Source of the DNA: Escherichia coli
GTDB lineage: Bacteria > Pseudomonadota > Gammaproteobacteria > Enterobacterales > Enterobacteriaceae
NCBI RefSeq assembly: GCF_050320075.1
Contig: NZ_CP190018.1
Direction: 5' to 3' (one strand)
DNA: 64,000 nt
The position numbers and the translations under genes are program-made. Shown one piece after another: positions 1-21,591 of the stretch. The stretch's first letter is position 1. The number at the start of each line of letters is the position of its first letter. The notes under the pieces were generated by a model, which was not told where the DNA came from, ran no database searches, and saw nothing but the letters and a program-made list of their open reading frames with translations.

Positions 1-2
1 AT

Positions 3-155
3 AACGTTAAGGGCGTTGCAGAGGGTTCTAAGGCCATCAGAATCACAACGGACCAACTGGAACTACTCAAAGCACAGTCCGCAGTAGCAGGTTGCTCAAT
101 GATTCAGGTGTTAAGCGCAAAGGTCCATCAATTAGCGGATAGGCTGGGGGTTTAA
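3..155 (+). CDS. 3' end of an unknown ORF running in from upstream of the window (partial, about 50 codons visible)
   Basis: Open frame from position 3 with no stop until TAA at 153-155; that stop overlaps the ATG at 155 of the next ORF (TAATG). Not in the ORF track because it has no start inside the window. Confidence 0.3.
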   Translation, partial: NVKGVAEGSKAIRITTDQLELLKAQSAVAGCSMIQVLSAKVHQLADRLGV

Positions 156-580
156 TGCTATGCACATTTGATTATCATGCGTTTTATCGCCATAGAGGCC
201 ACCTTGTCCGTGAGAATAGCGGAACATGGAAAGATTTAACTCGTAATGCTGAACCCTTCACACACCAGCAATTAAAATCCCGCTTCTCCAGATGGAAGAA
301 TGCACCAGCAGATACTGGTGATTTTGAGATTATCCATACCTTCGATTATGCCTCAGAAGATGACCTTCACGATGCAATTAAGCTGATTGAAGACTTCAAT
401 ACCTCAGAAGATGTGGATGGTGACAAATATAAATCCCGTGGTAACCGCTATAACCGTGATGATATCACTCAGGCCATAAATGCTGGTCAATCTCAGCGAT
501 ACATTACAGAAAAATATGGTATTTCACGGAGACAGTATTTCTACGTTAAATCATTGATTAATAAAGACAATTCAAAATAA
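155..580 (+). CDS. hypothetical protein, 141 aa, with a C-terminal helix-turn-helix-like segment
   Basis: ORF-track ORF; ATG overlaps the upstream stop (TAATG); C-terminal stretch DDITQAINAGQSQRYITEKYGISRRQYFYV resembles a DNA-binding HTH; AT-rich codon usage like the rest of the element. Confidence 0.5.
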   Translation: MLCTFDYHAFYRHRGHLVRENSGTWKDLTRNAEPFTHQQLKSRFSRWKNAPADTGDFEIIHTFDYASEDDLHDAIKLIEDFNTSEDVDGDKYKSRGNRYNRDDITQAINAGQSQRYITEKYGISRRQYFYVKSLINKDNSK

Positions 581-717
581 CCATCTCAGTAACGGTAGAA
601 TGCACTTTACAGGCAGAGTTGCACCTTAATTTGATAAATTACCTTACCAGCCAGTGCAACTCCCTCTGTAACCCGCATGATTACTGGTCTCAGAATGGCT
701 ATTTTAAGAGGTCTGAG

Positions 718-1065
718 ATGTGTTTTGTAGGAGATTTAAAAATGAACAACTTCCCATTACAGATTTTCGTTGATAACGACACCGCTATGATGGTGCAAAG
801 CTTCAGTGATGCAGGTATTAGCATTGATTTTGACAGGCTGTTAAAGCTAATGGCTGATAATGAAGAAAACGTCTCTGACTTTATTCACTCGGTGGAGTTT
901 AACGAGCCTCGAATGATGTTACCAATTACAGACAGTAATATGAAAAGATTGGTTATTGAGCAAACGAACAAATACAGTATTTCCCCAGAGCAATTTTTGA
1001 AAGGTGCTGTGACAATCCTGTACAGCGATAATATTTTGGTTACGGATTCCGTGAGGGTTCACTAA
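718..1065 (+). CDS. hypothetical protein, about 115 aa (alternative start at 742)
   Basis: ORF-track ORF 619..1065 begins at a TTG; a better start is ATG 718 preceded by AAGAGG (706-711), or ATG 742 preceded by GGAG. No recognisable motif. Confidence 0.45.
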   Translation: MCFVGDLKMNNFPLQIFVDNDTAMMVQSFSDAGISIDFDRLLKLMADNEENVSDFIHSVEFNEPRMMLPITDSNMKRLVIEQTNKYSISPEQFLKGAVTILYSDNILVTDSVRVH

Positions 1066-1142
1066 TGGGCTTAATAATTGCTTGGACGTTGCTTGGCTTA
1101 TTTGTTGGTTGCTGGGTAGGCAGCACAGTAAATAGAAATTGA
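1065..1142 (+). CDS. candidate 25-aa hydrophobic micro-protein (MGLIIAWTLLGLFVGCWVGSTVNRN)
   Basis: ATG at 1065-1067 overlaps the TAA stop of the preceding ORF (TAATG); a single predicted transmembrane stretch followed by a polar tail; too short to appear in the ORF track. Confidence 0.3.
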   Translation: MGLIIAWTLLGLFVGCWVGSTVNRN

Positions 1143-1166
1143 TGTTACCAATCTGTTAAAAAGCTG

Positions 1167-1195
1167 TTGACAAATAACCTTAAGCATGAGATGAT
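1167..1195 (+). promoter_or_regulatory. sigma70-like promoter candidate (TTGACA, 17-bp spacer, TGn-GATGAT)
   Basis: Perfect -35 hexamer TTGACA at 1167-1172, 17-bp spacer, TG at 1187-1188 and a weak -10 GATGAT at 1190-1195; followed immediately by a short GAGAG/CTCTC hairpin and a T-run. Confidence 0.35.
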
Positions 1196-1359
1196 GGTAA
1201 TAGGGGAGAGCAACTCTCTCTTATTTTTCTTTCAAAATAATCCGATGGATGGATATTCTGAATTGGAAAGGTGCAATGCTTTTCGTCATGGCCTTTCAGT
1301 TTAGTCTGAGAGGCTATCTCAAAAAGTGCTTAATCATTCATTGAACCCTTTACAGCTTT

Positions 1360-1388
1360 GCCCTAACTCATGATTAGGGCTTTCTTTA
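1360..1388 (+). terminator. intrinsic-terminator-like hairpin (GCCCTAA / TTAGGGC) followed by TTTCTTT
   Basis: Perfect 7-bp inverted repeat at 1360-1366 and 1374-1380 with a 7-nt loop, then a U-rich tract. Confidence 0.4.
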
Positions 1389-1636
1389 AGAGTTTTTAAA
1401 CAGAGCTTTTAAAGAAAGTTTTTCCTGAAACTTCGTTAACGTTAAAGCAAACCTTCAAAGCCCTTCACAGATGAGGATGATTCCATGAATATCCGAATCA
1501 CCTATGTTTAGGGCTTTTTTCAGCTTTTAAAAAGCATACTTGGCAAACGCCTTTTAAGCCTCTTCTAAGTTCGAGGATGTCAGGTGTGCTTTTTAAAAAC
1601 TGAAACATAAATTATCTTAGAAGAGGAAAGGTATTA

Positions 1637-2341
1637 ATGGCTATCCGTGATGAAAATGAAATGATTATTGAAAACAAACCAAGTGCACTTGATATTCACG
1701 AATTAAGTTTGCGTGAATCTTTTGATAGAGCTTGGCGGGAATCACACGAAGTAAATAAAGGTCCATATATTCCACCAGAACCACTCGAGATTCCAAGAGT
1801 TGAAATTGATTTTTCTATGAACGAACGGTGTGAACTTGATTTGAAGTTGAAGCTACAACGCCGATATTTCCAAGCTATTAAAGACTCTCAAGAAGCAATG
1901 AGAAGTGTTTATGAGAAAATTCAGTCCAAGCTTGAAGACGAAATTGACGAAATGGCTATTTTGATGGAGCTTCAAACCAATCCTTATGCTTATTTCTCTC
2001 GACTAGACCGTGACGGTTGGGGGTATGACCCTGTAGAGATTGGTAAAGTGATTGCAGATTTACCAGAAGGTCAAAGGGTTATTCGTACGGAAAGGGCCAT
2101 CAGAGCGCCACATCAACTGTCTCTAATTGTTGCTGATAAATCACAAGCTGAGCTTGAAGAAATTGCCAAAGAGAAACTGATGAAAGCAAGAGAAAATGAG
2201 ATTAATTTGCTGAAATCAAGACTGGCTAAGCTGATTAGTGACCATCAAGCGCTGGCTAAGGAGTACCGTCAAGAGTTGGCACAGATTATCAGCTTCAATG
2301 ATTTTCTGAGTGTTCCACGAGAATTTAGCAAGGCTGTTTGA
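1637..2341 (+). CDS. hypothetical acidic protein, 234 aa
   Basis: Strong RBS (AGAGGAAAGG) 7 nt upstream of the ATG; glutamate- and lysine-rich with an apparently helical C-terminal half; no motif recognised. Confidence 0.6.
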   Translation: MAIRDENEMIIENKPSALDIHELSLRESFDRAWRESHEVNKGPYIPPEPLEIPRVEIDFSMNERCELDLKLKLQRRYFQAIKDSQEAMRSVYEKIQSKLEDEIDEMAILMELQTNPYAYFSRLDRDGWGYDPVEIGKVIADLPEGQRVIRTERAIRAPHQLSLIVADKSQAELEEIAKEKLMKARENEINLLKSRLAKLISDHQALAKEYRQELAQIISFNDFLSVPREFSKAV

Positions 2342-2364
2342 TTATGAATTAAAAGAGGTGATTA

Positions 2365-2583
2365 ATGTATGAAGACCGTTTGGAAACTATCAAGGCAGTT
2401 TGTGAAAAACTTAAAAACCAACCACGTAAACCAAAAACGGTAAAGAGTAAGCATCAGCCTGTCACCTCAAACAGCAAAATAAAGATTCGCAAAATTCCTT
2501 CGTGGTGCATTGACCGTATTCCGGTTGGTTCAAGAATTATTCGTGAAGATGGTGATTATCATTGGGTATCAGTTGTTGGTTAG
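2365..2583 (+). CDS. hypothetical small basic protein, 72 aa
   Basis: RBS AAAGAGGTGA upstream of the ATG; lysine/arginine-rich; followed by an intrinsic terminator. Confidence 0.5.
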   Translation: MYEDRLETIKAVCEKLKNQPRKPKTVKSKHQPVTSNSKIKIRKIPSWCIDRIPVGSRIIREDGDYHWVSVVG

Positions 2584-2598
2584 TTAGTAAAAATCTAC

Positions 2599-2638
2599 GG
2601 GAGAGATTATCGAGTGATATCGGTAGCTCTCCCTTTTT
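2599..2638 (+). terminator. rho-independent terminator
   Basis: GGGAGAG (2599-2605) pairs with CTCTCCC (2627-2633), followed by TTTTT. Confidence 0.55.
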
Positions 2639-2671
2639 CGTATATGAACACTTAAGAGGTGAAAAATATGA

Positions 2672-4804
2672 ATGAGCAAATTCACAGTTGATAGTTTTAT
2701 CGTTGAATTAAGCTTCAATGAAAACATTATTAAGGGCTTGCAAAGAGTTGAAAAGGCAGCTTTGCAGTCAGCACAAAGAATTGAAAAGAACCTAAATAAA
2801 GGTTTCAGGATTAATACAAAGCAGCTTGATAGTAATTTAACGGCTTCTTTAGGGCAGCTTGAAAGGAAGTTTAATAAGGCCTTTGACAAGATTGAACAGA
2901 GAGCAAGAAATACTAAAGCTTTCCAGTTTACCACCAGATTTAATGACACTGTTAATCCTCCAAAACAACCGAGACAGCCACGAATTAGCGGCAACAGAGC
3001 AATCACAGCAGCTTACTCAGCGAATATGAGCAAGCTAAAAGGCTTTGACCCTATTTTGCAGAAATACATCAAATCTCAGTTTTACGGGCTATCTGCTAAA
3101 GCCGGTTCAATGGATTCTTCAAAATTCAATGAGAAGTTAGCTCAGTTAAACGCTTCAGTCAGAGAAGCAATTGCTAAAGCCAGAGGTCATACATCCACCA
3201 GCATTAATGGTGACAGAGCAGCTAATAGTCTTGATAACCTGTCTTCAGCAGCAGTTAAAACAGCAGGTGCATTTATCTCAATGCAGGCTGTATTAGCCAG
3301 TTATCAGAAGATTATGGAAATTGGTTTACAGCGTGCAAGTGCTGAACGTTCAATTGATTTCGTATTTGATAAAGATGCAGGTCAAGTAAAAGAGTTCACA
3401 AAGTCATTAGCTCAAACAACGGGTTTAGATATCGCTGAACTGCAATCACAGTTTGCTGGTTTTGGTGCTTCAGCTAAAGAGTCTATGGGCATTCAAGGTT
3501 CTGAAGAACTTTTTAAAAATATGATTGGCTATGCTCGTCTGATGGGGAGAAGTGAAGAAGAGATTAAGCGAGCACTGACAGCATTATCACAGATGGCTGG
3601 TAAGGGTCAGGTTATGGCTGAAGAGCTTAAGGGGCAATTAGCTGAAGCTGTTCCTGGTATGGTTCAGGTATTCGCTAAAGCAACCGGAAGGAATGAACAA
3701 GAGCTATTTGATGCCATGAAGAAGGGGGCTTTAAAATCTGCCGATACTCTTCAGAAGGTCACTCAGGAACTGAATAAACAAATCACCGCTAAAGGTGGCT
3801 GGAAAGCTATTTCAGAAAGTACACAGGCACAACTAGGGAACCTGAAAAACTCTTGGAATACCACGCTTGATAGTATCTTCAGAGGTTCTGAAGATGGTCT
3901 GCAAGATTTTACAAGAAGCTTAACAACGCTTTTAAACGCTCTTGGTGGAAGTGGTAAAAGTCTTGGTGAATCTCTTGGTAGTCTCATGACTTCTATGTCA
4001 CATGGTGTCGATTCATTGACTGATATCAGCTACAGGGTAAGAGCATTCTTCGATGAGGTGACATTAGCTTACCGTTCACTAAATGACACTCAGAAAAAAA
4101 TTGTTGATGGTTTATCTGATGGGTTAATTGATGGTTTGAAGATGCTTGCCGTAGCTGTTACTGCTCAAAAGGCTGCAAATGTAGCTGGAGGCTTGTTAAA
4201 CCTTGCAAATGCTGTTACTTCATTCGGTGATGCTGTTAATAAAGCTAAAGCTGGCAAGGCTGGTTCTTCAGGTGGTGCGCTAAATAAAGTTGGTAGAGTT
4301 GTTCTTTATGCTGAGTTGGTGAACTTTGCTCTTGATAATTTAAACCCTGAAGCGGCTAAGAATCCGAACTTACACCAATCAGGTATTGGAACAGAGACAA
4401 ACTTCAACCCTGAATACAAAGGCGATTCATCTAAACCAAACCAAATTAATGATGGATGGGCTAAGATTGGTAGTTCTATCGCTGACTGGTTTAATGGTGC
4501 GGCTAATAAAATTGCTAACTTCCAAGACCCGATGAATAACTTTGTTAATAACACACAATCAACTCCACCAGCTATCACAGGTGACATGGTTAATAGCAAT
4601 GCTCAACTTGCTATGGCTGTATCAGAGTTAGGAAGAAAGGTAGACGCTTTAACAGTAGAAGCTAAGAAGCCTTTATCAGTTAATATCAAAGGTGAAGCAA
4701 TTGTTAGACCGGATGAACCAGCTTTCTTTACTTTCAATCAATCAGCTAATGACCAGTTCACGCAGGATATGCTCTTAAGTTCAAGCTATCCAGAGGAAGA
4801 ATGA
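2672..4804 (+). CDS. phage tail tape-measure-domain protein (TMP-like), 710 aa
   Basis: RBS AAGAGGTG upstream; helical, alanine/glycine/lysine-rich; the segment ALTALSQMAGKGQVMAEELKGQLAEAVPGMVQVFAKATGRNEQELFDAMKKGALKSADTLQKV matches, from memory, the conserved core of phage tape-measure proteins. Confidence 0.6.
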   Translation: MSKFTVDSFIVELSFNENIIKGLQRVEKAALQSAQRIEKNLNKGFRINTKQLDSNLTASLGQLERKFNKAFDKIEQRARNTKAFQFTTRFNDTVNPPKQPRQPRISGNRAITAAYSANMSKLKGFDPILQKYIKSQFYGLSAKAGSMDSSKFNEKLAQLNASVREAIAKARGHTSTSINGDRAANSLDNLSSAAVKTAGAFISMQAVLASYQKIMEIGLQRASAERSIDFVFDKDAGQVKEFTKSLAQTTGLDIAELQSQFAGFGASAKESMGIQGSEELFKNMIGYARLMGRSEEEIKRALTALSQMAGKGQVMAEELKGQLAEAVPGMVQVFAKATGRNEQELFDAMKKGALKSADTLQKVTQELNKQITAKGGWKAISESTQAQLGNLKNSWNTTLDSIFRGSEDGLQDFTRSLTTLLNALGGSGKSLGESLGSLMTSMSHGVDSLTDISYRVRAFFDEVTLAYRSLNDTQKKIVDGLSDGLIDGLKMLAVAVTAQKAANVAGGLLNLANAVTSFGDAVNKAKAGKAGSSGGALNKVGRVVLYAELVNFALDNLNPEAAKNPNLHQSGIGTETNFNPEYKGDSSKPNQINDGWAKIGSSIADWFNGAANKIANFQDPMNNFVNNTQSTPPAITGDMVNSNAQLAMAVSELGRKVDALTVEAKKPLSVNIKGEAIVRPDEPAFFTFNQSANDQFTQDMLLSSSYPEEE

Positions 4805-4967
4805 TTTCTTATATATCCGTGTGCTACGTGATTTCTTCTGAACAGATATACCCACTAAAAATTATTTTTTACGTAGCTCACGCTTAACAGAGAAAATACT
4901 TATATATCAAAGGCTTGGTTAAAAATGATTAAAATACACTAAGCCTTTGAAATCAAAGGAGAATTTA

Positions 4968-5741
4968 ATGATTTACTCTAATCAGATTCGTTACAGTGGT
5001 AAAGATGGCGTTTACTTTCATCTACAAGGCCAGCCAGATAATTTCTTGTCACTATCAGCTACTGAGAACATGGAATTTGACAGCCCTATGATGGTTACCA
5101 CTCAAAATATGCAATCAGGGCAGACTGTCACAGATAATGTAATGCGTTCACCCAGAACTATTTCAATCAGTGGTGTGGTTGTAGTTGGTGAATCCGGTAG
5201 TATCCTTATCTCAAGAGATAATAAGCTGGTGGAAAACTTCATAGACACTCTTGAAAACTGGCGTGACCAGAAGCAAATTATCTCAGTTGTCTGTAAAGAT
5301 GGTATTAAGATTGACGACTCAATTATTACAAACTTTAAAGCCTCTAAAGATGTTGGTATTGCCAATGGTCTTAGAATCCAATTAACTTTTCAGGAAATTA
5401 ACTTTAAAGCTATTGTGGGTCAGACTGATATCTCGGCTGCGACCGGAAGGACTTCTACCACAAGTGATGGTGGTGCTACCAGTAAAAAGAATACAGGGAA
5501 CACTACGACAAGCTTAGGTAACGGTATGTTGATGTGTCAGGAGCTATATAATCGCTCTACGAGTGAACTTACTAATGAGCAACTTCAAGCCCGTATCAAT
5601 TGTGGTAAAAATGTCAGAGTTAAGAACGGAAAAAGCACCTTCTCAGATGCCGCTAATGAGCAAGCTTCAAAGGTGCTTAATAATGCTGGTACAGGTAGTA
5701 CTTTGAAGAAGTATTCTGTTAATCCTAACAAGCGATACTGA
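4968..5741 (+). CDS. hypothetical protein, 257 aa; possibly a distal-tail-like protein, judged only by position after the tape-measure gene
   Basis: ORF-track ORF 4947..5741 begins at a TTG; preferred start is ATG 4968 preceded by AAGGAG. The N-terminal half looks beta-strand-rich and the C-terminal half is Ser/Thr/Gly/Asn-rich. Confidence 0.5.
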
Positions 5742-5755
5742 CGATAGAATCTCAA

Positions 5756-7279
5756 CTATATGATAACCTCATCAACATCTATTAAACCCCTCTCAGTGAC
5801 TTCAGAAAGCGACTGTATAGCCTCTGTAACGTTGTCTGAGGGGTTTTCTGTTATTGGTAAGGTGATTGCTTTACCGTTGTGAAAAGTTACTTTACAGCGA
5901 CGTTTAGCAGTATTTAAAACGACCTCTTTAACAGCACTTTTGATTATCAGTTGTGCTTCAATCCTTCCCGCCTTTGTAGTCAAGTCACAATCAGACAAAC
6001 AACCCACATCAATAGATTTAAGGCGTTGTGTCTCCTTCTCGATATCCGCATCAACTTGTGATAGCTCATTCTTTAGTTGTCTTAGTTTGCTGGTAATAGC
6101 GGACAAGTCTTCAATTTCAAGTGATAGCTGTACCAGCTTTTCAATATTGCTTGAGATGTGTTCACGGTGTAGCTTCAGTGTGTCTATGGTATTCGTCATA
6201 TCGCTATCAAATCGGTCAAGACGAGATAGCAGGGCAAGCAATGTACCATCGGTTTGCTTACGTGAAAGTCCTTTAGCACTACAACGGTTTTCATTACGAA
6301 GAGGACAACGATAAATCCCGTTTCTTGTATCGCTAAAGCCTGTGATAATCAAAGCATGACCACATTCAGAACAACGGATAACACCTTTGAAAAGATTCAC
6401 AGCCATTGGCTTATCTGAAGCAGGTTTTCTACCGTAACGAGCATATGATAGTTGTTGAACTTTGTAGAATGTTGTTTCATCTATAATTGCAGGATAATAA
6501 CCAGATATCTCCTCACAGCCTTTAGGTGTGAAGTAACCAATTACAGAGCGATTCTTCAAAAGGTCTTGCACTGAGGTTTGACCAAACTTACCTGCTTTGT
6601 ACTGGTTAAGCGTCTGGTGACCTTCAGCATTAAGAGTTCTGACAATCTCCCAGATAGACTTACCCTCTAACCGTAGCTGAAAGCACCTCTTCACAGTCTC
6701 CACTTTCTCAGGTATCACAGAGAAGCTTTTACGGTCATCATTAAGCTTAAGCCATGCAGGACAACGCCTAGAAATCTTGATACCAGCTTTAGCAGCTTCT
6801 TTCTTTGCATCCCATGCAGCTTGTATACGCTCAGCCTTACGTAATGATTCCTCATGCGCCCTTTGCATTATCAAAATGCTTTTAATCAGAGCTAACGGGT
6901 CTTTAAGAGATTCCCTTGTGTAATGTTCACCATCGGACAGGGTGACTACATCTACACCAGAGCGAAGAATGTTTCTGAGTAGCTCACTTGCTTGGTCTAC
7001 GTCCTGACGTGAGAGACGGTCTAAACTCTCGATTAGTAGTGTATCACCAGCTTTAACAAGCCCTTTCTCGATAGCGGTTAAAAAGTCACCTAAGCCACCT
7101 TTCAAGTGCTTACCAGTGAACCCGCTAACGCCTAAATCACGAAAAGTAAGGGATTCATCCAGATAGTACTCAGGATGAGCCTTAAGCCAATCAGTGACCA
7201 TCTTAGCCTGTCGTCTTAATGAGTCGCCTCTGGATTGCTTCTCAGATGAAAACCGGATGTAACTGATTGCACGTTTCAT
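5756..7279 (-). CDS. large serine recombinase (phage-type serine integrase), 507 aa
   Basis: N-terminal resolvase-type catalytic domain (ISYIRFSSEKQSRGDSL...LLIESLDRLSRQ), a central recombinase region, a cysteine-rich zinc-ribbon-like motif (CSECGHALIITG...YRCPLRNENRCSAKG) and a coiled-coil C-terminus; convergent with the cargo genes and adjacent to the host junction. Confidence 0.85.
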   Translation of the reverse strand: MKRAISYIRFSSEKQSRGDSLRRQAKMVTDWLKAHPEYYLDESLTFRDLGVSGFTGKHLKGGLGDFLTAIEKGLVKAGDTLLIESLDRLSRQDVDQASELLRNILRSGVDVVTLSDGEHYTRESLKDPLALIKSILIMQRAHEESLRKAERIQAAWDAKKEAAKAGIKISRRCPAWLKLNDDRKSFSVIPEKVETVKRCFQLRLEGKSIWEIVRTLNAEGHQTLNQYKAGKFGQTSVQDLLKNRSVIGYFTPKGCEEISGYYPAIIDETTFYKVQQLSYARYGRKPASDKPMAVNLFKGVIRCSECGHALIITGFSDTRNGIYRCPLRNENRCSAKGLSRKQTDGTLLALLSRLDRFDSDMTNTIDTLKLHREHISSNIEKLVQLSLEIEDLSAITSKLRQLKNELSQVDADIEKETQRLKSIDVGCLSDCDLTTKAGRIEAQLIIKSAVKEVVLNTAKRRCKVTFHNGKAITLPITENPSDNVTEAIQSLSEVTERGLIDVDEVII

Positions 7280-7346
7280 TGTTCACCTCACCAATAGCAG
7301 TTGGGCTTGTACCAACCCCTAGATTGTATCGCTTTAGATGGTGTAT

Positions 7347-7841
7347 TTAAACGTGTCTAATAAAAATCACCCGATTAACGCCGCGCTGATGTAAACCGCG
7401 ATTAAGCGTTTGTTCCTCTTCCCCTTTGGCGAAAAACTGTGGATGGCGGACTTCCACACCATAATTAAATTCGCCGGGAAGGGAATCGAGAAAATGCCAA
7501 AGCGCAGGCAGATCCCGTGGGCCAAATGTGGCAGGCAGTTGCAGCCAGTATTGCCCAATGCGCGGCGCTAACGGTGACATGCGGGTCAAAAATTCAGTCA
7601 CTAAATCATCGCAATGCCGTAATGCTGCCTGATGCGAAATGGTCGCCGGAAACTTAAAACAGAAGCGAAAATTATCTGTGGTCTGCTCACGCCAGCGCAG
7701 GACAACCTCGGATTTCGGCAGGGCGTAAAGCGTGGTGTTGCCCTCCACACAGTTAAAGTGGCGGGCATACTCTTCAAGGCTGGTGATCCCCAACCGCACC
7801 CATTTAGGATGCGACCATTGCGGCAGACCGATGTAAATCAT
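7347..7841 (-). pseudogene. yecE: yecE (DUF72 family), 5' portion only: reading frame interrupted by the insertion
   Basis: N-terminus [29 protein letters not shown] matches recalled YecE; the frame stops after 164 codons (intact YecE is about 272 aa from memory) exactly where GC-rich host sequence changes to the AT-rich element. Confidence 0.7.
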
Positions 7842-8404
7842 AATGCGTTGAGGATCTCTTCCACACTGCGCACACGGGCGATGCGTGGGTAGATATGGTT
7901 GATGCTGTTATTGTGCTGCTCGGCGCTGGCGGCGCTGCAGGCGTCTTCGGCAATCACCAGATTAAAACCGAGTTCCCAGGCATTGCGGGCGGTGGATTCA
8001 ACACCGATATTGGTCGAGATCCCACATAATACTATTGTATCGATACCCCGGCGGCGTAATTGCAACTCCAGATCTGTACCGTAAAACGCCCCCCACTGAC
8101 GTTTGATGATTTCGATATCACTGTCAGTTGCACCTAATGCAGCAGGATGTTGCCACCAGTTTTCGGGCAACACTTTAGCGGGGGAAGGGGCATCAACCGG
8201 CTGTTTTAATGCTTCGGCGTAATCGGCAGACCAGCCAACGCGCACCAGAAACACGGGCTGACCGCTGGCGCGAAATTTCACCGCCAGCTTCCCGGCGCGA
8301 TTAACCACCTCATCGGCAGTATGTGGACCTCCGGCAAAAGGTAAGATGCCTTCTTGTAAATCAATCACCACCAGCGCGGTGGTTTTAGCATTAAGTTCAA
8401 GCAT
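7838..8404 (-). CDS. yecD: isochorismatase-family hydrolase YecD
   Basis: [23 protein letters not shown]...; ORF-track ORF trimmed to the internal Met that gives a 188-aa product. Confidence 0.85.
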
Positions 8405-12382: not shown

Positions 12383-12985
12383 TTATACCGCCTCGGTCAG
12401 TTCCGGCTGAGGCGTTTCCACTCCCTCCGCATGAATCAACACCAAACCCGGATGATGCCACAAACTGGCTGGCGTGACGGTTTTACGCTCCCACGGAATA
12501 GAACCCAGGAACCAGAATTTCCAGAAAGTGAGTTTTGCATTCGGATTGCTATTTAACAATTCTCCAAACGTCTCTATTTCACCCACCGGAATACATAGCG
12601 CCTCTTTATAAATATCAAAAACAAATTTTGAACAGAACTGGCGCGAAGATTCGTATTTAAAACCGGTGTGGTAAAGTTTGCGTAGCCGGGAGGGAACCTG
12701 TTCAACAATTCGTTGTTTTTGTTGTTCTGTCAGCCCAGCGTCTAATCGCTTTATAGCATAGCGTTGATTAGACGAACGTTTAATAAAACGAGATAGCGTG
12801 GTGATGGTTGAAAGGGGAACCCGGCTTTCTGCAACCAGGAAGTCTTCACCGTTATGACCGATAATGATCCCGACGTGATTACTCCAGCAATTTGATGCAG
12901 CTGATATTTGACCAAATAAGGCAGCACCTATACATGTAAAGACGATATCTCCAATTTCATATTCAGCAGGGTAATTAATATTCAC
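12383..12985 (-). CDS. yebB: DUF830-family protein YebB
   Basis: ORF-track ORF trimmed to a GTG start ([16 protein letters not shown]...) that gives about 200 aa; start assignment is uncertain. Confidence 0.7.
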
Positions 12986-13259
12986 GTTGTCATTCCATTG
13001 AAATAGATACGAATATACGTAATAGCATAAAAAATTTATTTTTTCAGGAGGCGCAATGTATATTTTTATTACGCATTTCTTCACTGAATATGTAATATTA
13101 AAATATTTGCTTCCAATATAACCTGTAGAACAAATTATACTGTGCCATTTTTCAGATCATCGGGACACCTCGCAAGTTTTCTTCATCCTTCGCTGGATAT
13201 CTATCCAGCATTTTTTTATCATACAGCATTATCTTTGATTCATTACGCAGGAGCGTCAT

Positions 13260-13871
13260 GTGATAGGCAGACTCAGAGGCATCATCATTGAAAAACAACC
13301 CCCGCTGGTGTTAATTGAAGTGGGCGGCGTAGGCTATGAAGTGCATATGCCGATGACCTGTTTTTATGAACTCCCTGAAGCGGGTCAGGAAGCGATCGTT
13401 TTCACCCACTTTGTGGTGCGTGAAGACGCGCAACTGCTGTACGGTTTTAACAATAAACAAGAGCGCACATTGTTCAAAGAGTTGATCAAAACCAACGGCG
13501 TCGGCCCGAAGTTAGCGCTGGCGATCCTCTCCGGAATGTCAGCGCAGCAGTTCGTTAATGCCGTTGAGCGTGAAGAAGTGGGGGCACTGGTGAAACTGCC
13601 GGGTATTGGCAAAAAAACCGCCGAACGCTTGATTGTTGAAATGAAAGACCGATTTAAAGGTTTGCATGGCGATCTCTTTACGCCAGCCGCCGACCTGGTA
13701 CTCACGTCTCCTGCCAGCCCGGCGACCGACGATGCTGAACAAGAAGCGGTTGCCGCGCTGGTGGCGCTGGGCTATAAACCACAAGAAGCAAGCCGCATGG
13801 TGAGCAAAATCGCTCGCCCTGACGCCAGCAGTGAAACATTAATTCGCGAAGCCCTACGCGCCGCGTTATGA
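13260..13871 (+). CDS. ruvA: Holliday junction branch-migration complex subunit RuvA
   Basis: [28 protein letters not shown]. Confidence 0.95.
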
Positions 13872-15039: not shown

Positions 15040-15825
15040 TTAGCTGGCCTGTTTTTTCATCATACTGAGAATAAATAACAGTGCCGCGCATAGCACCACC
15101 GACGGGCCTGCTGGTGTATCGTAAAATGCGGAAAAGGTTAAACCGCCAGTCACTGCCACCATCCCCACCAAAACAGCGACACCTGCCATCTGTTCCGGCG
15201 TGCGGGCAAAGCGACGTGCAGTAGCAGCAGGAATAATTAGCAACGAAGTAATAATCAACGCGCCGACAAATTTCATCGCTACACCAATCGTCAATGCCGT
15301 CACCAGCATCAACAACAATTTCACGCGCTGTAATTTCACACCATCAACAAACGCCAGATCCGGGCTAATCGTCATCGACAGCAAATTGCGCCATTGCCAG
15401 AACAAAATCGCCACCACGATGACCACGCCAATTGCAATAGAGATGAGATCTTCTGGCGTCACTGCCAGCAAATCACCGAACAGGTAAGCCATCAAATCAA
15501 CACGAATATTAGACATCAGACTAACGACCACCAGGCCCAGCGACAGGGCACTGTGCGCCATTATCCCTAATAACGTGTCGATCGCCAGCTGTGGACGCTT
15601 CTCCAGCCATACCAGACCGCCCGCCAGCAGCAGCGTAACTGCAATCACCGCATAGAATGGATTCACGTCCAGCAACAAACCAAACGCGACACCAAGTAAT
15701 GAGGCATGGGCCAGCGTATCACCGAAATAAGACATACGACGCCAGACCACAAACGAACCCAGCGGACCCGCGGCACAGGCGAGCATGATCCCGGCTAACC
15801 AACCGGGAAATAATAATTCAATCAT
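15040..15825 (-). CDS. znuB: zinc ABC transporter permease
   Basis: 261-aa polytopic membrane protein; conserved position in the znu locus. Confidence 0.9.
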
Positions 15826-16577
15826 GAGCGATCATTTCCCCGACGCAAAACAATTCGTCCCTGTAAATCGTGACGATGATTATGATGATGGCGATAGATA
15901 CCCAGTTGTTCAGCACCACGAGGACCAAACATAGAAATAAACTCCGGATGCAGGGAAACAACTTCCGGTGTACCGGAACAACAAATGTGGTGATTCAGGC
16001 AAAGCACTTCATCGGTTTTTGCCATTACCAGATGCAGATCGTGAGAGACCATTAAAACGCCACAATCCAGTTCGCGACGCAACTGGTCAATAAGGTCATA
16101 TAACGCCACCTGACCATTCACATCCACGCCCTGAGTGGGTTCATCCAGCACTAATAATTGCGGTCGATTTAACAATGCTCGCGCTAACAATACACGCTGT
16201 GTTTCGCCACCCGAGAGCTTTTGCATCGGTGCGTTAATCAGATGCCCGGCCTGGACACGTTTCAGTGCAGGCAAAATATCTTCTTTATGTGTGCCAGGGC
16301 GTAAGCGTAAAAAACGGTTTACGGTAAGTGGCAACGTGGTGTCGAGATACAGCTTCTGCGGTACATAGCCGATGCGCAGTTTTCCGTTGCGCTTGATAAC
16401 CCCTTCATCGGGTGTTACCAGCCCGAGCACTACCCGTACCAGTGTCGACTTACCTGCGCCATTTGGCCCAAGTAAAGTCAAAATTTTTCCAGGTTTAAGT
16501 TCCAGCGACACATCAGAGAGGACGCGGCGTTGGCCAAAAGAAACCGAGACATTTTCCAGGGAAACCAGACTTGTCAT
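15822..16577 (-). CDS. znuC: zinc ABC transporter ATP-binding protein
   Basis: Walker [13 protein letters not shown] signature LSGGETQR, His-rich C-terminus. Confidence 0.9.
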
Positions 16578-16601
16578 GTTAATTTTAGTCTTGCAGTAGT
16601 C

Positions 16602-16624
16602 ATGAAATGTTATAATATCACACT
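16602..16624. promoter_or_regulatory. Zur box in the znuC/znuA divergent promoter
   Basis: Near-palindromic GAAATGTTATAATATCACAC between the divergent znuC and znuA starts, matching the recalled Zur operator. Confidence 0.55.
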
Positions 16625-16655
16625 TCTCATATTCATTACGATGATTGGTCGCATT

Positions 16656-17588
16656 ATGTTACATAAAAAAACGCTTCTTTTCGCAGCATTATCCGCCGCT
16701 CTCTGGGGCGGTGCAACACAGGCCGCAGATGCTGCCGTTGTCGCTTCGCTTAAACCCGTTGGGTTCATCGCTTCTGCCATTGCTGATGGGGTAACAGAAA
16801 CGGAGGTTTTACTACCTGACGGCGCTTCAGAACATGATTATTCACTGCGTCCATCAGATGTAAAACGCTTACAGAACGCGGACTTAGTCGTTTGGGTTGG
16901 CCCGGAGATGGAAGCGTTCATGCAAAAACCGGTAAGTAAATTACCTGAAGCGAAACAGGTAACGATTGCGCAGCTAGAGAATGTGAAACCGCTGCTGATG
17001 AAAAGTATTCACGGCGATGATGATGATCACGACCACGCGGAAAAAAGTGACGAAGATCACCATCACGGCGATTTCAACATGCATCTTTGGCTTTCCCCAG
17101 AGATAGCGCGGGCTACAGCGGTTGCAATCCATGGAAAATTAGTGGAACTTATGCCGCAAAGTCGAGCCAAACTTGACGCCAACCTGAAGGATTTTGAGGC
17201 ACAATTAGCCTCAACCGAAAAGCAGGTTGGTAACGAGCTCGCGCCGCTCAAGGGGAAAGGTTATTTCGTTTTTCACGATGCTTACGGCTATTTCGAAAAA
17301 CAGTTCGGACTGACACCGCTTGGTCATTTTACCGTTAACCCTGAGATTCAACCTGGCGCGCAGCGTTTACATGAAATAAGAACACAGTTGGTTGAGCAAA
17401 AAGCAACCTGCGTTTTTGCTGAGCCACAGTTCAGGCCAGCGGTCGTTGAGAGCGTCGCACGAGGGACATCCGTTCGTATGGGAACGTTGGATCCCCTGGG
17501 GACGAATATCAAACTGGGTAAAACAAGCTATTCAGAATTCCTGAATCAATTAGCCAACCAGTATGCGAGCTGCCTGAAAGGAGATTAA
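16656..17588 (+). CDS. znuA: zinc ABC transporter periplasmic binding protein
   Basis: Signal peptide [23 protein letters not shown] and a His/Asp-rich loop ([21 protein letters not shown]); the ORF-track start at 16530 is an in-frame upstream artefact. Confidence 0.9.
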
Positions 17589-20148: not shown

Positions 20149-21591
20149 TTACTCTACCGTTAAAATACGCGTGGTATTAGTAGAACCCACGGTACTCATC
20201 ACGTCGCCCTGGGTGACAATCACCAGGTCACCAGACATCAAGTAACCTTTATCGCGCAGCAGATTAACCGCTTCGCTGGCAGCTGCTACGCCGTCATTAG
20301 CGCTATCAAAGTGCACCGGCGTAACGCCGCGATAGAGAGCAGTCAGGTTCAGCGTACGTTCATGGCGTGACATGGCGAAAATTGGCAGACCAGAGCTGAT
20401 ACGGGAGGTCATCAGCGCCGTACGACCCGATTCGGTCATGGTGATGATCGCCGTAACGCCTTTCAGGTGGTTAGCCGCGTACATTGCTGACATGGCAATA
20501 GCTTCTTCCACATTGTCGAACTGCACGTCCAGACGGTGTTTAGAAACGTTGATGCTCGGGATTTTTTCCGCACCCAGGCAAACGCGCGCCATGGCTGCAA
20601 CAGTTTCTGAAGGATACTGACCAGCAGCAGTTTCTGCAGAAAGCATCACAGCGTCAGTACCATCCAGAACGGCGTTTGCTACGTCCATGACTTCTGCACG
20701 CGTCGGCATCGGGTTAGTAATCATTGACTCCATCATCTGGGTCGCCGTGATTACTGCGCGGTTAAGCTGACGCGCACGACGGATCAACGCTTTCTGAATG
20801 CCGACCAGTTCCGGGTCGCCAATTTCCACACCGAGGTCGCCACGTGCAACCATTACCACGTCAGAGGCGAGGATGATGTCATCCATTGCATCCTGGCTGC
20901 AAACGGCTTCCGCACGTTCAACCTTGGCAACAATTTTCGCATCACAGCCTGCATCGCGTGCCAGGCGACGGGCATAGTTCAGATCTTCGCCGCAGCGTGG
21001 GAAGGAGACAGCCAGGTAATCTACGCCAATTAACGCCGCAGTCTTAATGTCTGCTTTGTCTTTTTCGGTCAGCGCTTCAGCCGACAAACCGCCGCCAAGT
21101 TTGTTGATACCTTTATTGTTGGAGAGGGGACCACCGACGGTGACTTCGGTGAACACTTTCATGCCCTGAACTTCCAGTACTTTTAACTGGACGCGACCAT
21201 CGTCCAGCAGCAGGATGTCACCAGGCACGACGTCAGCAGGCAGGCCTTTGTAGTCGATACCGACTTTTTCTTTGTCGCCTTCACCTTTACCCAGGTTGGC
21301 GTCGAGCAGGAATTTATCCCCAATATTGAGGAAAACTTTGCCTTCTTTAAAGGTGGATACACGAATTTTGGGCCCCTGGAGGTCACCCAGAATAGCCACA
21401 TGACGCCCCAGTTTTGCGGCAATTTCACGAACTTTATCCGCGCGCATTTTGTGATCTTCAGGCGAGCCGTGAGAAAAGTTCATACGTACAACGTTGGCAC
21501 CCGCTGCGATAACTTTTTCAAGATTATTATCGCGATCTGTTGCTGGGCCTAACGTGGTAACGATTTTTGTTCTGCGAAGCCTTCTGGACAT
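20149..21591 (-). CDS. pykA: pyruvate kinase II
   Basis: [19 protein letters not shown]...; ORF-track ORF trimmed to the 480-aa start. Confidence 0.9.

Follow-up and report, generated by a model that had tools for sequence, protein, structure and literature searches.

A conserved, translationally coupled micro-ORF for a predicted single-helix membrane peptide in a mobile island of Escherichia

A 64,000-nucleotide (nt) stretch of Escherichia coli DNA (contig NZ_CP190018.1 of RefSeq assembly GCF_050320075.1; hereafter the window) begins inside a chromosomal island with phage-like tail genes, and in this island an open reading frame (ORF) of 25 codons, the micro-ORF, overlaps the stop codon of a longer gene, ORF2 (Table 1). 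Its product, the 25-amino-acid (aa) micro-protein MGLIIAWTLLGLFVGCWVGSTVNRN, comprises a hydrophobic helix at residues 1–19 with the pattern G11-xxx-G15-xxx-G19, followed by the polar tail STVNRN. Residues 1–19 score 1.97 on a 19-residue Kyte–Doolittle window (KD19) and −9.4 kcal/mol on the Wimley–White octanol scale. A preliminary description of this DNA had placed a 25-aa ORF at the stop of the preceding gene, and its coordinates, sequence and TAATG overlap prove exact. The single hydrophobic helix with a short polar tail that it read there is borne out by the hydrophobicity scores, and it was right that standard annotation misses the gene: there is no NCBI feature at 1065–1142, nor any at the micro-ORF position in strain YZLc1-3 (NZ_CP123240.1), to which the window is 100% identical, or in another carrier.

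Hydrophobicity by itself does not lift the micro-ORF beyond chance. When ATG-initiated ORFs of 19–40 aa with a KD19 of at least 1.9 were counted, the window held three, against 2.5 expected (range 0–7) from shuffled windows. Only the ORF at 1065–1142 among these three also has a Shine–Dalgarno sequence; the other mini-ORF flagged for an overlap, at 20687–20770, is buried in a long ORF on the opposite strand, whereas the micro-ORF is not. What places the micro-ORF far beyond chance is its conservation in related elements. Loci (denoted by L numbers) were collected by a conserved non-coding pattern that starts 11 nt 3′ of the micro-ORF stop, and the sampling is therefore blind to the micro-ORF itself; two matches at contig ends and four unrelated chance matches were excluded. 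The micro-ORF is intact in 118 of the 120 complete related loci, with its frame, ATG and stop/start overlap kept there and in distant elements, conservation of the frame and overlap being a check that the preliminary description had named. One of the two remaining loci has a 13-nt deletion (L089), and in the other the element is truncated inside the micro-ORF (L072). The ORF and its TAATG are retained by all ten IMG/VR relatives found by way of ORF2. The micro-ORF also occurs in E. albertii and in another Escherichia species, and a scan of the genome collection with the neighbouring 234-aa protein matched only in Escherichia albertii and one Escherichia sp. Judged by these comparisons, the micro-ORF is conserved across the entire known range of the element.

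The variation among relatives has the form expected of a coding sequence. The class of 25-aa alleles comprises 89 loci, with 54 unique DNAs without the window, 55 with it and 30 unique proteins; the 21-aa class, MELVIICFVLIGMIAGASIKV, comprises 29 loci with nine unique DNAs. The resulting 64 distinct DNA versions (55 + 9) contain no stop in the sense frame, whereas every one of them has stops in both shifted sense frames. Entropy by codon position is 11.8, 6.2 and 18.6 for positions 1, 2 and 3, with its peak at the third. By the Nei–Gojobori method the ratio of non-synonymous to synonymous differences per site (pN/pS) is 0.30 at a synonymous level (pS) of 0.49. No other frame scores as low (0.44, 0.75, 1.0, 1.3 and 1.6 for the remaining five), and the annotated ORF2, measured over its last 75 codons in these loci, gives 0.40 at a similar pS. 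This comparative signature shows a genuine protein-coding gene under purifying selection at 1065–1142.

Translation signals are conserved as well. The Shine–Dalgarno duplex in the window has an energy of −6.2 kcal/mol, against a background of −1.5 ± 1.8 inside ORF2, and a duplex of −5.4 to −9.1 kcal/mol lies 5′ of the ATG in 118 of 118 loci. At least five upstream sequence contexts preserve the start codon, the Shine–Dalgarno sequence and the overlap, among them two C-terminal alleles of ORF2 and a third, ~25%-identical ORF2 relative; one context has a different upstream gene. In that context, L127 and L128 (ORF2 61% identical), an extra gene of 74 aa stands between ORF2 and the micro-ORF, and the micro-ORF, here MDLVIAWTMLGLFVGCLIGNEANKN, is TAATG-coupled to the extra gene. 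The extra gene itself (MKVQIDEAIKKFDFEK...; L127 6327–6551, L128 718–942) is TAATG-coupled on both sides, which makes three overlapped cistrons. In L129–L132, where ORF2 is 47% identical and the integration sites are different ones, a 22-aa version, MTLIILWVLLGIVLSFAISMER, has an ATGA overlap with the ORF2 stop and a GGGAG 5′ of it. Across these loci the comparison shows initiation by predicted translational coupling, through the stop/start overlap and the micro-ORF's own Shine–Dalgarno sequence, and shows the micro-ORF always as the last cistron of its putative operon. The preliminary description had tied the micro-ORF to ORF2. Stop/start coupling stands, but specificity for ORF2 does not: in L127 and L128 the preceding gene is another one, and the alleles of the two genes assort independently, so the coupling is positional, to whichever gene precedes.

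The products fall into three deeply diverged classes with one helix each, the 25-aa class (MGLIIAWT.LGLFVGC...), the 21-aa class and the 22-aa class. All combine a hydrophobic stretch of 17–19 residues with 3–6 polar residues, and all are strongly hydrophobic by KD19 (1.96–2.54) and by the Wimley–White octanol scale (−5 to −13 kcal/mol). Within the 25-aa class W7, T8, L10, G11, G15, C16, N23 and N25 are invariant, and changes in the helix exchange one hydrophobic residue for another. An alignment of all classes leaves M1, L3 and G11 invariant and has G or S at position 15, defining a small-xxx-small face of G11 and G/S15 that extends to G/S19 in many alleles; in many alleles, too, the third glycine (position 19) is replaced by N, A or S. 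The micro-ORF classes assort independently of the alleles of ORF2 and of eight other island genes in a coarse association test, a pattern in which the micro-ORF acts as a separate recombination cassette flanked by conserved sequence.

Every class has exactly one basic residue (K or R), near the C terminus, and a neutral or acidic position 2. The positive-inside rule is the basis for topology prediction, and this distribution of charge predicts a periplasmic N terminus and a cytoplasmic C terminus. We infer that the product inserts in the inner membrane as a single helix in this N-out/C-in orientation. The other products of the island reach a maximum KD19 of 1.54 and contain no membrane-like segment, and the micro-protein appears from these profiles to be the sole membrane protein that the island makes. 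That it is a real, translated membrane peptide we consider highly probable.

No described family accommodates it. Four allele classes compared with NCBIfam at E ≤ 10 returned only a chance match, to cytochrome b6-f subunit V (E 0.14); PADLOC, PHROGs and Pfam gave no family match, and a tblastn search of 50,697 phage genomes gave no match. None of eight allelic variants is present in a collection of 15 billion proteins, and a literature search with the sequence found no relevant paper. Elsewhere in the window (~13056–13121) the Prokaryotic Genome Annotation Pipeline (PGAP) annotates yobI, a known 21-aa stress-response small protein; the pipeline thus calls tiny genes given a curated family, which implies that the micro-ORF belongs to no curated family. 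By these searches the micro-protein is a new family of small hydrophobic proteins, predicted to lie in the membrane and borne by mobile elements, outside the families described so far.

The upstream cistron, ORF2, has no Pfam, PHROG or NCBIfam family, and DNA and protein searches of the same phage genomes with this region and with ORF2 found no match. Its family is confined to Escherichia and is extremely polymorphic, with 3,399 clusters at 90% identity. An AlphaFold (AF2) model with a predicted local distance difference test score (pLDDT) of 76 shows two strand–helix–helix repeats resembling a tandem ribbon-helix-helix fold, and Foldseek gives weak matches to F-plasmid relaxosome chains (E 0.03), single-chain Arc and DndE; we take the relaxosome chains to be TraY, a tandem ribbon-helix-helix protein. 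Because of this predicted fold and these weak structural matches, ORF2 is probably a DNA-binding protein of the tandem ribbon-helix-helix type, and hence would not be a membrane partner of the micro-protein. A long inverted repeat at ~608–668 (ACAGGCAGAGTTGCAC ... GTGCAACTCCCTCTGT), between ORF1 and ORF2, could be an operator or an RNA hairpin; in an alignment of relatives this intergenic region is too variable to reveal a promoter or to judge the repeat.

Table 1. Features at and around the micro-ORF, with the gene order of the island (promoter elements, hairpin and coupling are predictions)
Feature	Position	Strand	Description
Micro-protein gene (micro-ORF)	1065..1142	+	25 codons + TGA; product MGLIIAWTLLGLFVGCWVGSTVNRN
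Shine–Dalgarno sequence GAGGG	1053..1057	+	8 nt 5′ of ATG 1065; inside ORF2 coding sequence
TAATG stop/start overlap	1063..1067	+	ORF2 TAA 1063–1065 overlaps ATG 1065; translational coupling
ORF2, upstream cistron	742..1065	+	107 aa; start ATG 742
Near-invariant non-coding block	1143..1195	+	53 bp directly after micro-ORF stop
TGTT(A/G) repeats, 11 bp spacing	1143, 1154, 1165	+	Three repeats within the near-invariant block
−35 element TTGACA	1167–1172	+	Promoter scan, 10 of 12 matches together with the −10 element
Extended −10 element	1187–1195	+	TGA-GATGAT in window, TGA-CATAAT in most relatives
Hairpin + T-run	1199..1225	+	Terminator scan; within ~8 nt of −10 element
Island gene order, left part			306-aa opposite-strand protein; Dam-type methylase; O-like replication initiator and several small proteins; 141-aa protein; ORF2; micro-ORF
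Island gene order, right part			~500 bp non-coding; 234-aa and 72-aa genes; TMP_3 tape measure; Dit-like baseplate protein; large serine recombinase

The non-coding block that follows the micro-ORF is far more conserved than the surrounding coding DNA, being ~100% conserved over 92 unique sequences, a figure that for 1153–1173 is partly by construction. The arrangement TTGACA-17-CATAAT with a TGn extension, which is close to the promoter consensus, occurs in 102 of 121 loci. The micro-ORF stop abuts the first of the three repeats, and its last two bases (TG, 1141–1142) are shared with a TGTGTTA run. The block probably serves the tail module as a promoter, either activator-dependent or constitutive, and also acts as a recombination anchor between cassettes. 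As these alignments show, the micro-ORF ends directly before a conserved, strong predicted promoter that precedes the tail-gene module.

The hairpin that follows is kept with compensatory changes in its stem (GGGAGAG/CTCTCTC, GGAAGAG/CTCTTCC, GGGGAA/TTCCCC), and a T-run follows it in only about half of the variants; L129, with GGGGAA/TTCCCC, lacks one. It is the likely terminator for the operon in which the micro-ORF comes last. It also sits at the predicted start of the downstream transcript, and two further terminator-like hairpins, at 1360–1380 and ~1460–1520, lie 5′ of the first tail gene; together these positions suggest antitermination-type control of the tail genes. A second conserved non-coding block at 1263–1300, GGAAAGGTGCAATGCTTTTCGTCATGGCC, is invariant at 1273–1285 and has no Rfam match. 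A 31-aa ORF that overlaps it (1249–1344) was rejected as a gene, being not conserved among relatives and interrupted early in L133.

Positions 1 to ~7279 of the window form the right part of a 12-kb island, of which ~5 kb more lies upstream (L011 14500–26700). It interrupts yecE (a DUF72 gene), leaving two pseudogene halves, and at its end lies the gene for a 507-aa large serine recombinase. Islands of this type are 10–12 kb in size, occupy at least three integration sites, are never on plasmids and are present in 400–467 of 5,426 complete E. coli genomes. The C terminus of the 141-aa protein is helix-turn-helix-like as read by eye, and by this gene order the micro-ORF is the end of what we take to be a replication/regulatory operon, lying directly against the predicted promoter of the tail-gene module. 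The Dit-like protein (4968–5741) is 72% identical over 98% of its length to a Felix O1 protein, and its relatives are found in 299 phage records, nearly all of them Felixounavirus-type virulent myoviruses; its ‘endolysin’ PHROG matches are secondary to phrog_3721, to Pfam Dit_like and to the PGAP name ‘phage baseplate protein’. The tape measure (2672–4804) is ~30% identical to that of Felix O1-like phages. Capsid, terminase, portal, endolysin, spanin and other lysis genes were all absent from the island. Since virulent phages are unable to lysogenise, the presence of Felix O1-like tail genes in the chromosome, as part of an island, points to a relation of helper and satellite. One carrier, L135 (NZ_CP080370.1, strain PK5086), has an island in decay, with IS2 in the tape measure and the recombinase truncated beside ISEc12 (12634–13862, 15219–17403); its 21-aa micro-ORF allele is still intact.

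This organization has a parallel in PLE, a satellite of Vibrio cholerae whose integration relies on a large serine recombinase; it encodes a replication initiator of its own and requires a virulent myovirus (PMC7182436). The only conserved transmembrane proteins of PLE are unannotated small ORFs, LidI, of 66 or 121 aa, which act at the membrane on lysis timing by disrupting the lysis inhibition of the helper (PMC7182436). The likeness, drawn by description, lies in the recombinase, the replication initiator, the parts from a virulent myovirus and an unannotated product that would be the sole transmembrane one; the lengths differ, the micro-protein having 21–25 aa. By this analogy the island looks like an undescribed family of PLE-like satellites confined to Escherichia, and our literature searches turned up no element of this kind described in E. 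coli.

Taken as a whole, the locus is best explained, with a probability that we put at roughly one half, by a coupled coding gene whose product is a small single-helix membrane modulator. The micro-protein would be made when the replication/regulatory operon of the island is on. With its conserved small-xxx-small face (G11, G/S15 and often G/S19), the helix would pack on a transmembrane helix of an inner-membrane protein of the host or of the helper phage, or on a copy of itself, and the effect might be, for example, an altered envelope physiology or lysis timing during infection by a Felix O1-like phage. Tiny single-helix inner-membrane proteins for which helix–helix packing is plausible are familiar from MgrB, AcrZ, MgtS, PmrR, SgrT and Caulobacter SidA (29 aa). 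Regulators of the MgrB, AcrZ and MgtS type are encoded on the chromosome, mostly under promoters of their own, and their partners are known, whereas the micro-ORF is carried by a mobile element and coupled within an operon, and the NCBIfam scan found no sequence similarity between the micro-protein and the small single-pass regulators. The deep divergence of the allele classes and their independence from the flanks fit a variable external partner. That the micro-protein binds a partner rather than acting as an autonomous toxin is a tentative view, for which we would give slightly less than even odds.

Several observations weigh against this proposal. One antisense frame, which shares wobble positions with the sense frame, is open too and has a pN/pS of 0.44; because of the shared positions it would be expected to echo the sense signal, and part of the codon signal is not specific to one strand. 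The association test, coarse as it is, showed no co-variation of the micro-ORF class with alleles of nine island genes. The GxxxGxxxG motif is equally typical of self-assembling pore-forming peptides and so cannot distinguish a modulator from a toxin. The timing of expression, moreover, is as conjectural as the satellite nature of the island from which it derives.

The micro-protein could instead be a self-assembling, membrane-damaging peptide, resembling a type I toxin or a minimal holin, that oligomerises, dissipates the proton motive force and kills or lyses the cell; for the island this could mean abortive infection, earlier lysis or post-segregational stabilisation. We regard such a function as possible though rather doubtful. 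In size, single hydrophobic helix and short polar end, the micro-protein is like Ibs (19 aa), ShoB (26 aa), TisB (29 aa) and DinQ (27 aa), and its hydrophobicity is presumably within the range of membrane toxins of 19–29 aa. Its three spaced glycines form a glycine-zipper pattern, glycine zippers are enriched in channel-forming peptides, and such toxins are common on mobile elements. We also take the end of the 22-aa class, ...VLSFAIS, to recall the ...LISFSAY of Ibs, a resemblance short of a significant match. The zipper is incomplete in the many alleles that lack the third glycine, however, and the partner that a type I toxin would have is not predicted: the minus strand of 500–1800 contains no sigma-70-like promoter, positions 1–8000 contain no Rfam family at E ≤ 1 (Sib, OhsC, IstR, Rdl, Sok or similar), and neither a toxin family in NCBIfam at E ≤ 10 nor PADLOC gave a match. 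Type I toxins are typically made from a stand-alone, translationally silenced mRNA, whereas the micro-ORF is a directly coupled last cistron with a strong, conserved Shine–Dalgarno sequence. With holins the micro-protein shares a phage-related context and a predicted membrane helix, holins having at least one transmembrane domain. Known holin classes have ~60 aa or more and a charged cytoplasmic C-terminal domain; the micro-protein is less than half the size of the smallest and has a single basic residue in its tail, and the island has no endolysin or spanin gene. Having no family match, no predicted antisense-RNA partner and no linked lysis genes, the micro-protein belongs neither to the type I toxin families nor to the holins. 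The preliminary description had listed both as roles, beside membrane modulators; of that list a membrane modulator and a peptide that is toxin-like in mechanism survive as candidates, and its core reading of a real, coupled micro-protein with one predicted transmembrane helix is supported.

Other explanations set aside a function for the peptide, or its identity as a separate membrane protein, and each is unlikely. A translated but functionless peptide, whose ORF carries ribosomes to the end of the operon and so protects the mRNA or avoids Rho-dependent termination, would account for a very short cistron that is always terminal and whose stop is always only a few bases away from the conserved promoter block. 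We hold this improbable: purifying selection on the amino acids is as strong as in the neighbouring gene (0.30 against 0.40), the eight invariant residues of the 25-aa class never vary, the hydrophobic helix design is kept in three classes whose DNA can no longer be aligned, and the stop lies ~60 nt before the hairpin, too far for ribosomes to influence it. An attenuator or leader-peptide role was rejected on the ground of the same distance. That the frame is untranslated, and open only because its nucleotides are constrained by a promoter upstream element, operator or RNA structure, or by an antisense gene, is quite improbable too, even though the adjoining 53 bp are invariant for non-coding reasons and one antisense frame is open in all alleles, with a 29-aa antisense ORF at 1098–1187 in the window. 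Unlike the invariant block, the micro-ORF is highly variable at synonymous sites, and this explanation leaves the conserved ATG, Shine–Dalgarno sequence and overlap in unrelated contexts unaccounted for. No start codon is conserved in the antisense frame, and in the 21-aa class 18 of 27 loci lack any antisense ORF of at least 20 aa; the ORF at 1098–1187 lies mostly in DNA without synonymous variation, which argues against coding. Antisense ORFs at 1040–1126 and 1098–1187 were accordingly rejected, for want of a conserved start or for lying in invariant DNA. Very improbable is a tiny lipoprotein or exported peptide precursor, in which the LFVGC sequence would serve as a lipobox and leave a lipidated C-terminal peptide of ten residues. 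L12-F13-V14-G15-C16 fits a lipobox loosely, and C16 is invariant in the 25-aa class; but no K or R precedes the helix, some alleles have D or E at position 2, the 22-aa class has no cysteine, and in the 21-aa class the cysteine is at position 7 in a non-lipobox context. Scarcely credible, finally, is a C-terminal membrane anchor of ORF2 made by −1 ribosomal frameshifting, although with respect to ORF2 the micro-ORF does occupy the −1 frame, which in the window stays open over the 11 codons that precede the ATG. The last codons of ORF2, read by eye, contain no canonical slippery heptamer; in most alleles the upstream open stretch spans only 3–13 codons; and in L127 and L128 the same ORF follows a different gene, everywhere with its own conserved ATG and Shine–Dalgarno sequence.

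The membrane-modulator proposal admits a more specific form, suggested by the analogy with PLE. The micro-protein may be the membrane effector of undescribed PLE-like satellites of virulent Felix O1-type myoviruses, switched on together with satellite replication, binding an inner-membrane protein of helper or host (for example the holin or antiholin of the helper) and thereby resetting lysis timing or aborting infection. In so specific a form we think the idea unlikely. If it were true, a protein of 21–25 aa would be among the smallest known effectors of phage interference, and an arms race with helper phages would be mirrored in its allele cassettes.

The micro-ORF represents a new conserved gene family that appears never to have been annotated, missing both from RefSeq annotation and from a collection of 15 billion predicted proteins, yet carried in ~7% of complete E. 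coli genomes. A length cut-off hides this terminal cistron of its operon, and comparative sampling anchored on the adjoining non-coding DNA recovers it. The small size of the micro-protein puts a complete mutational or synthetic-peptide analysis within reach. Should the island prove to be a satellite of Felix O1-like phages, which are used in typing and in therapy cocktails, the micro-protein would be the first candidate for interference with them at the level of the membrane.

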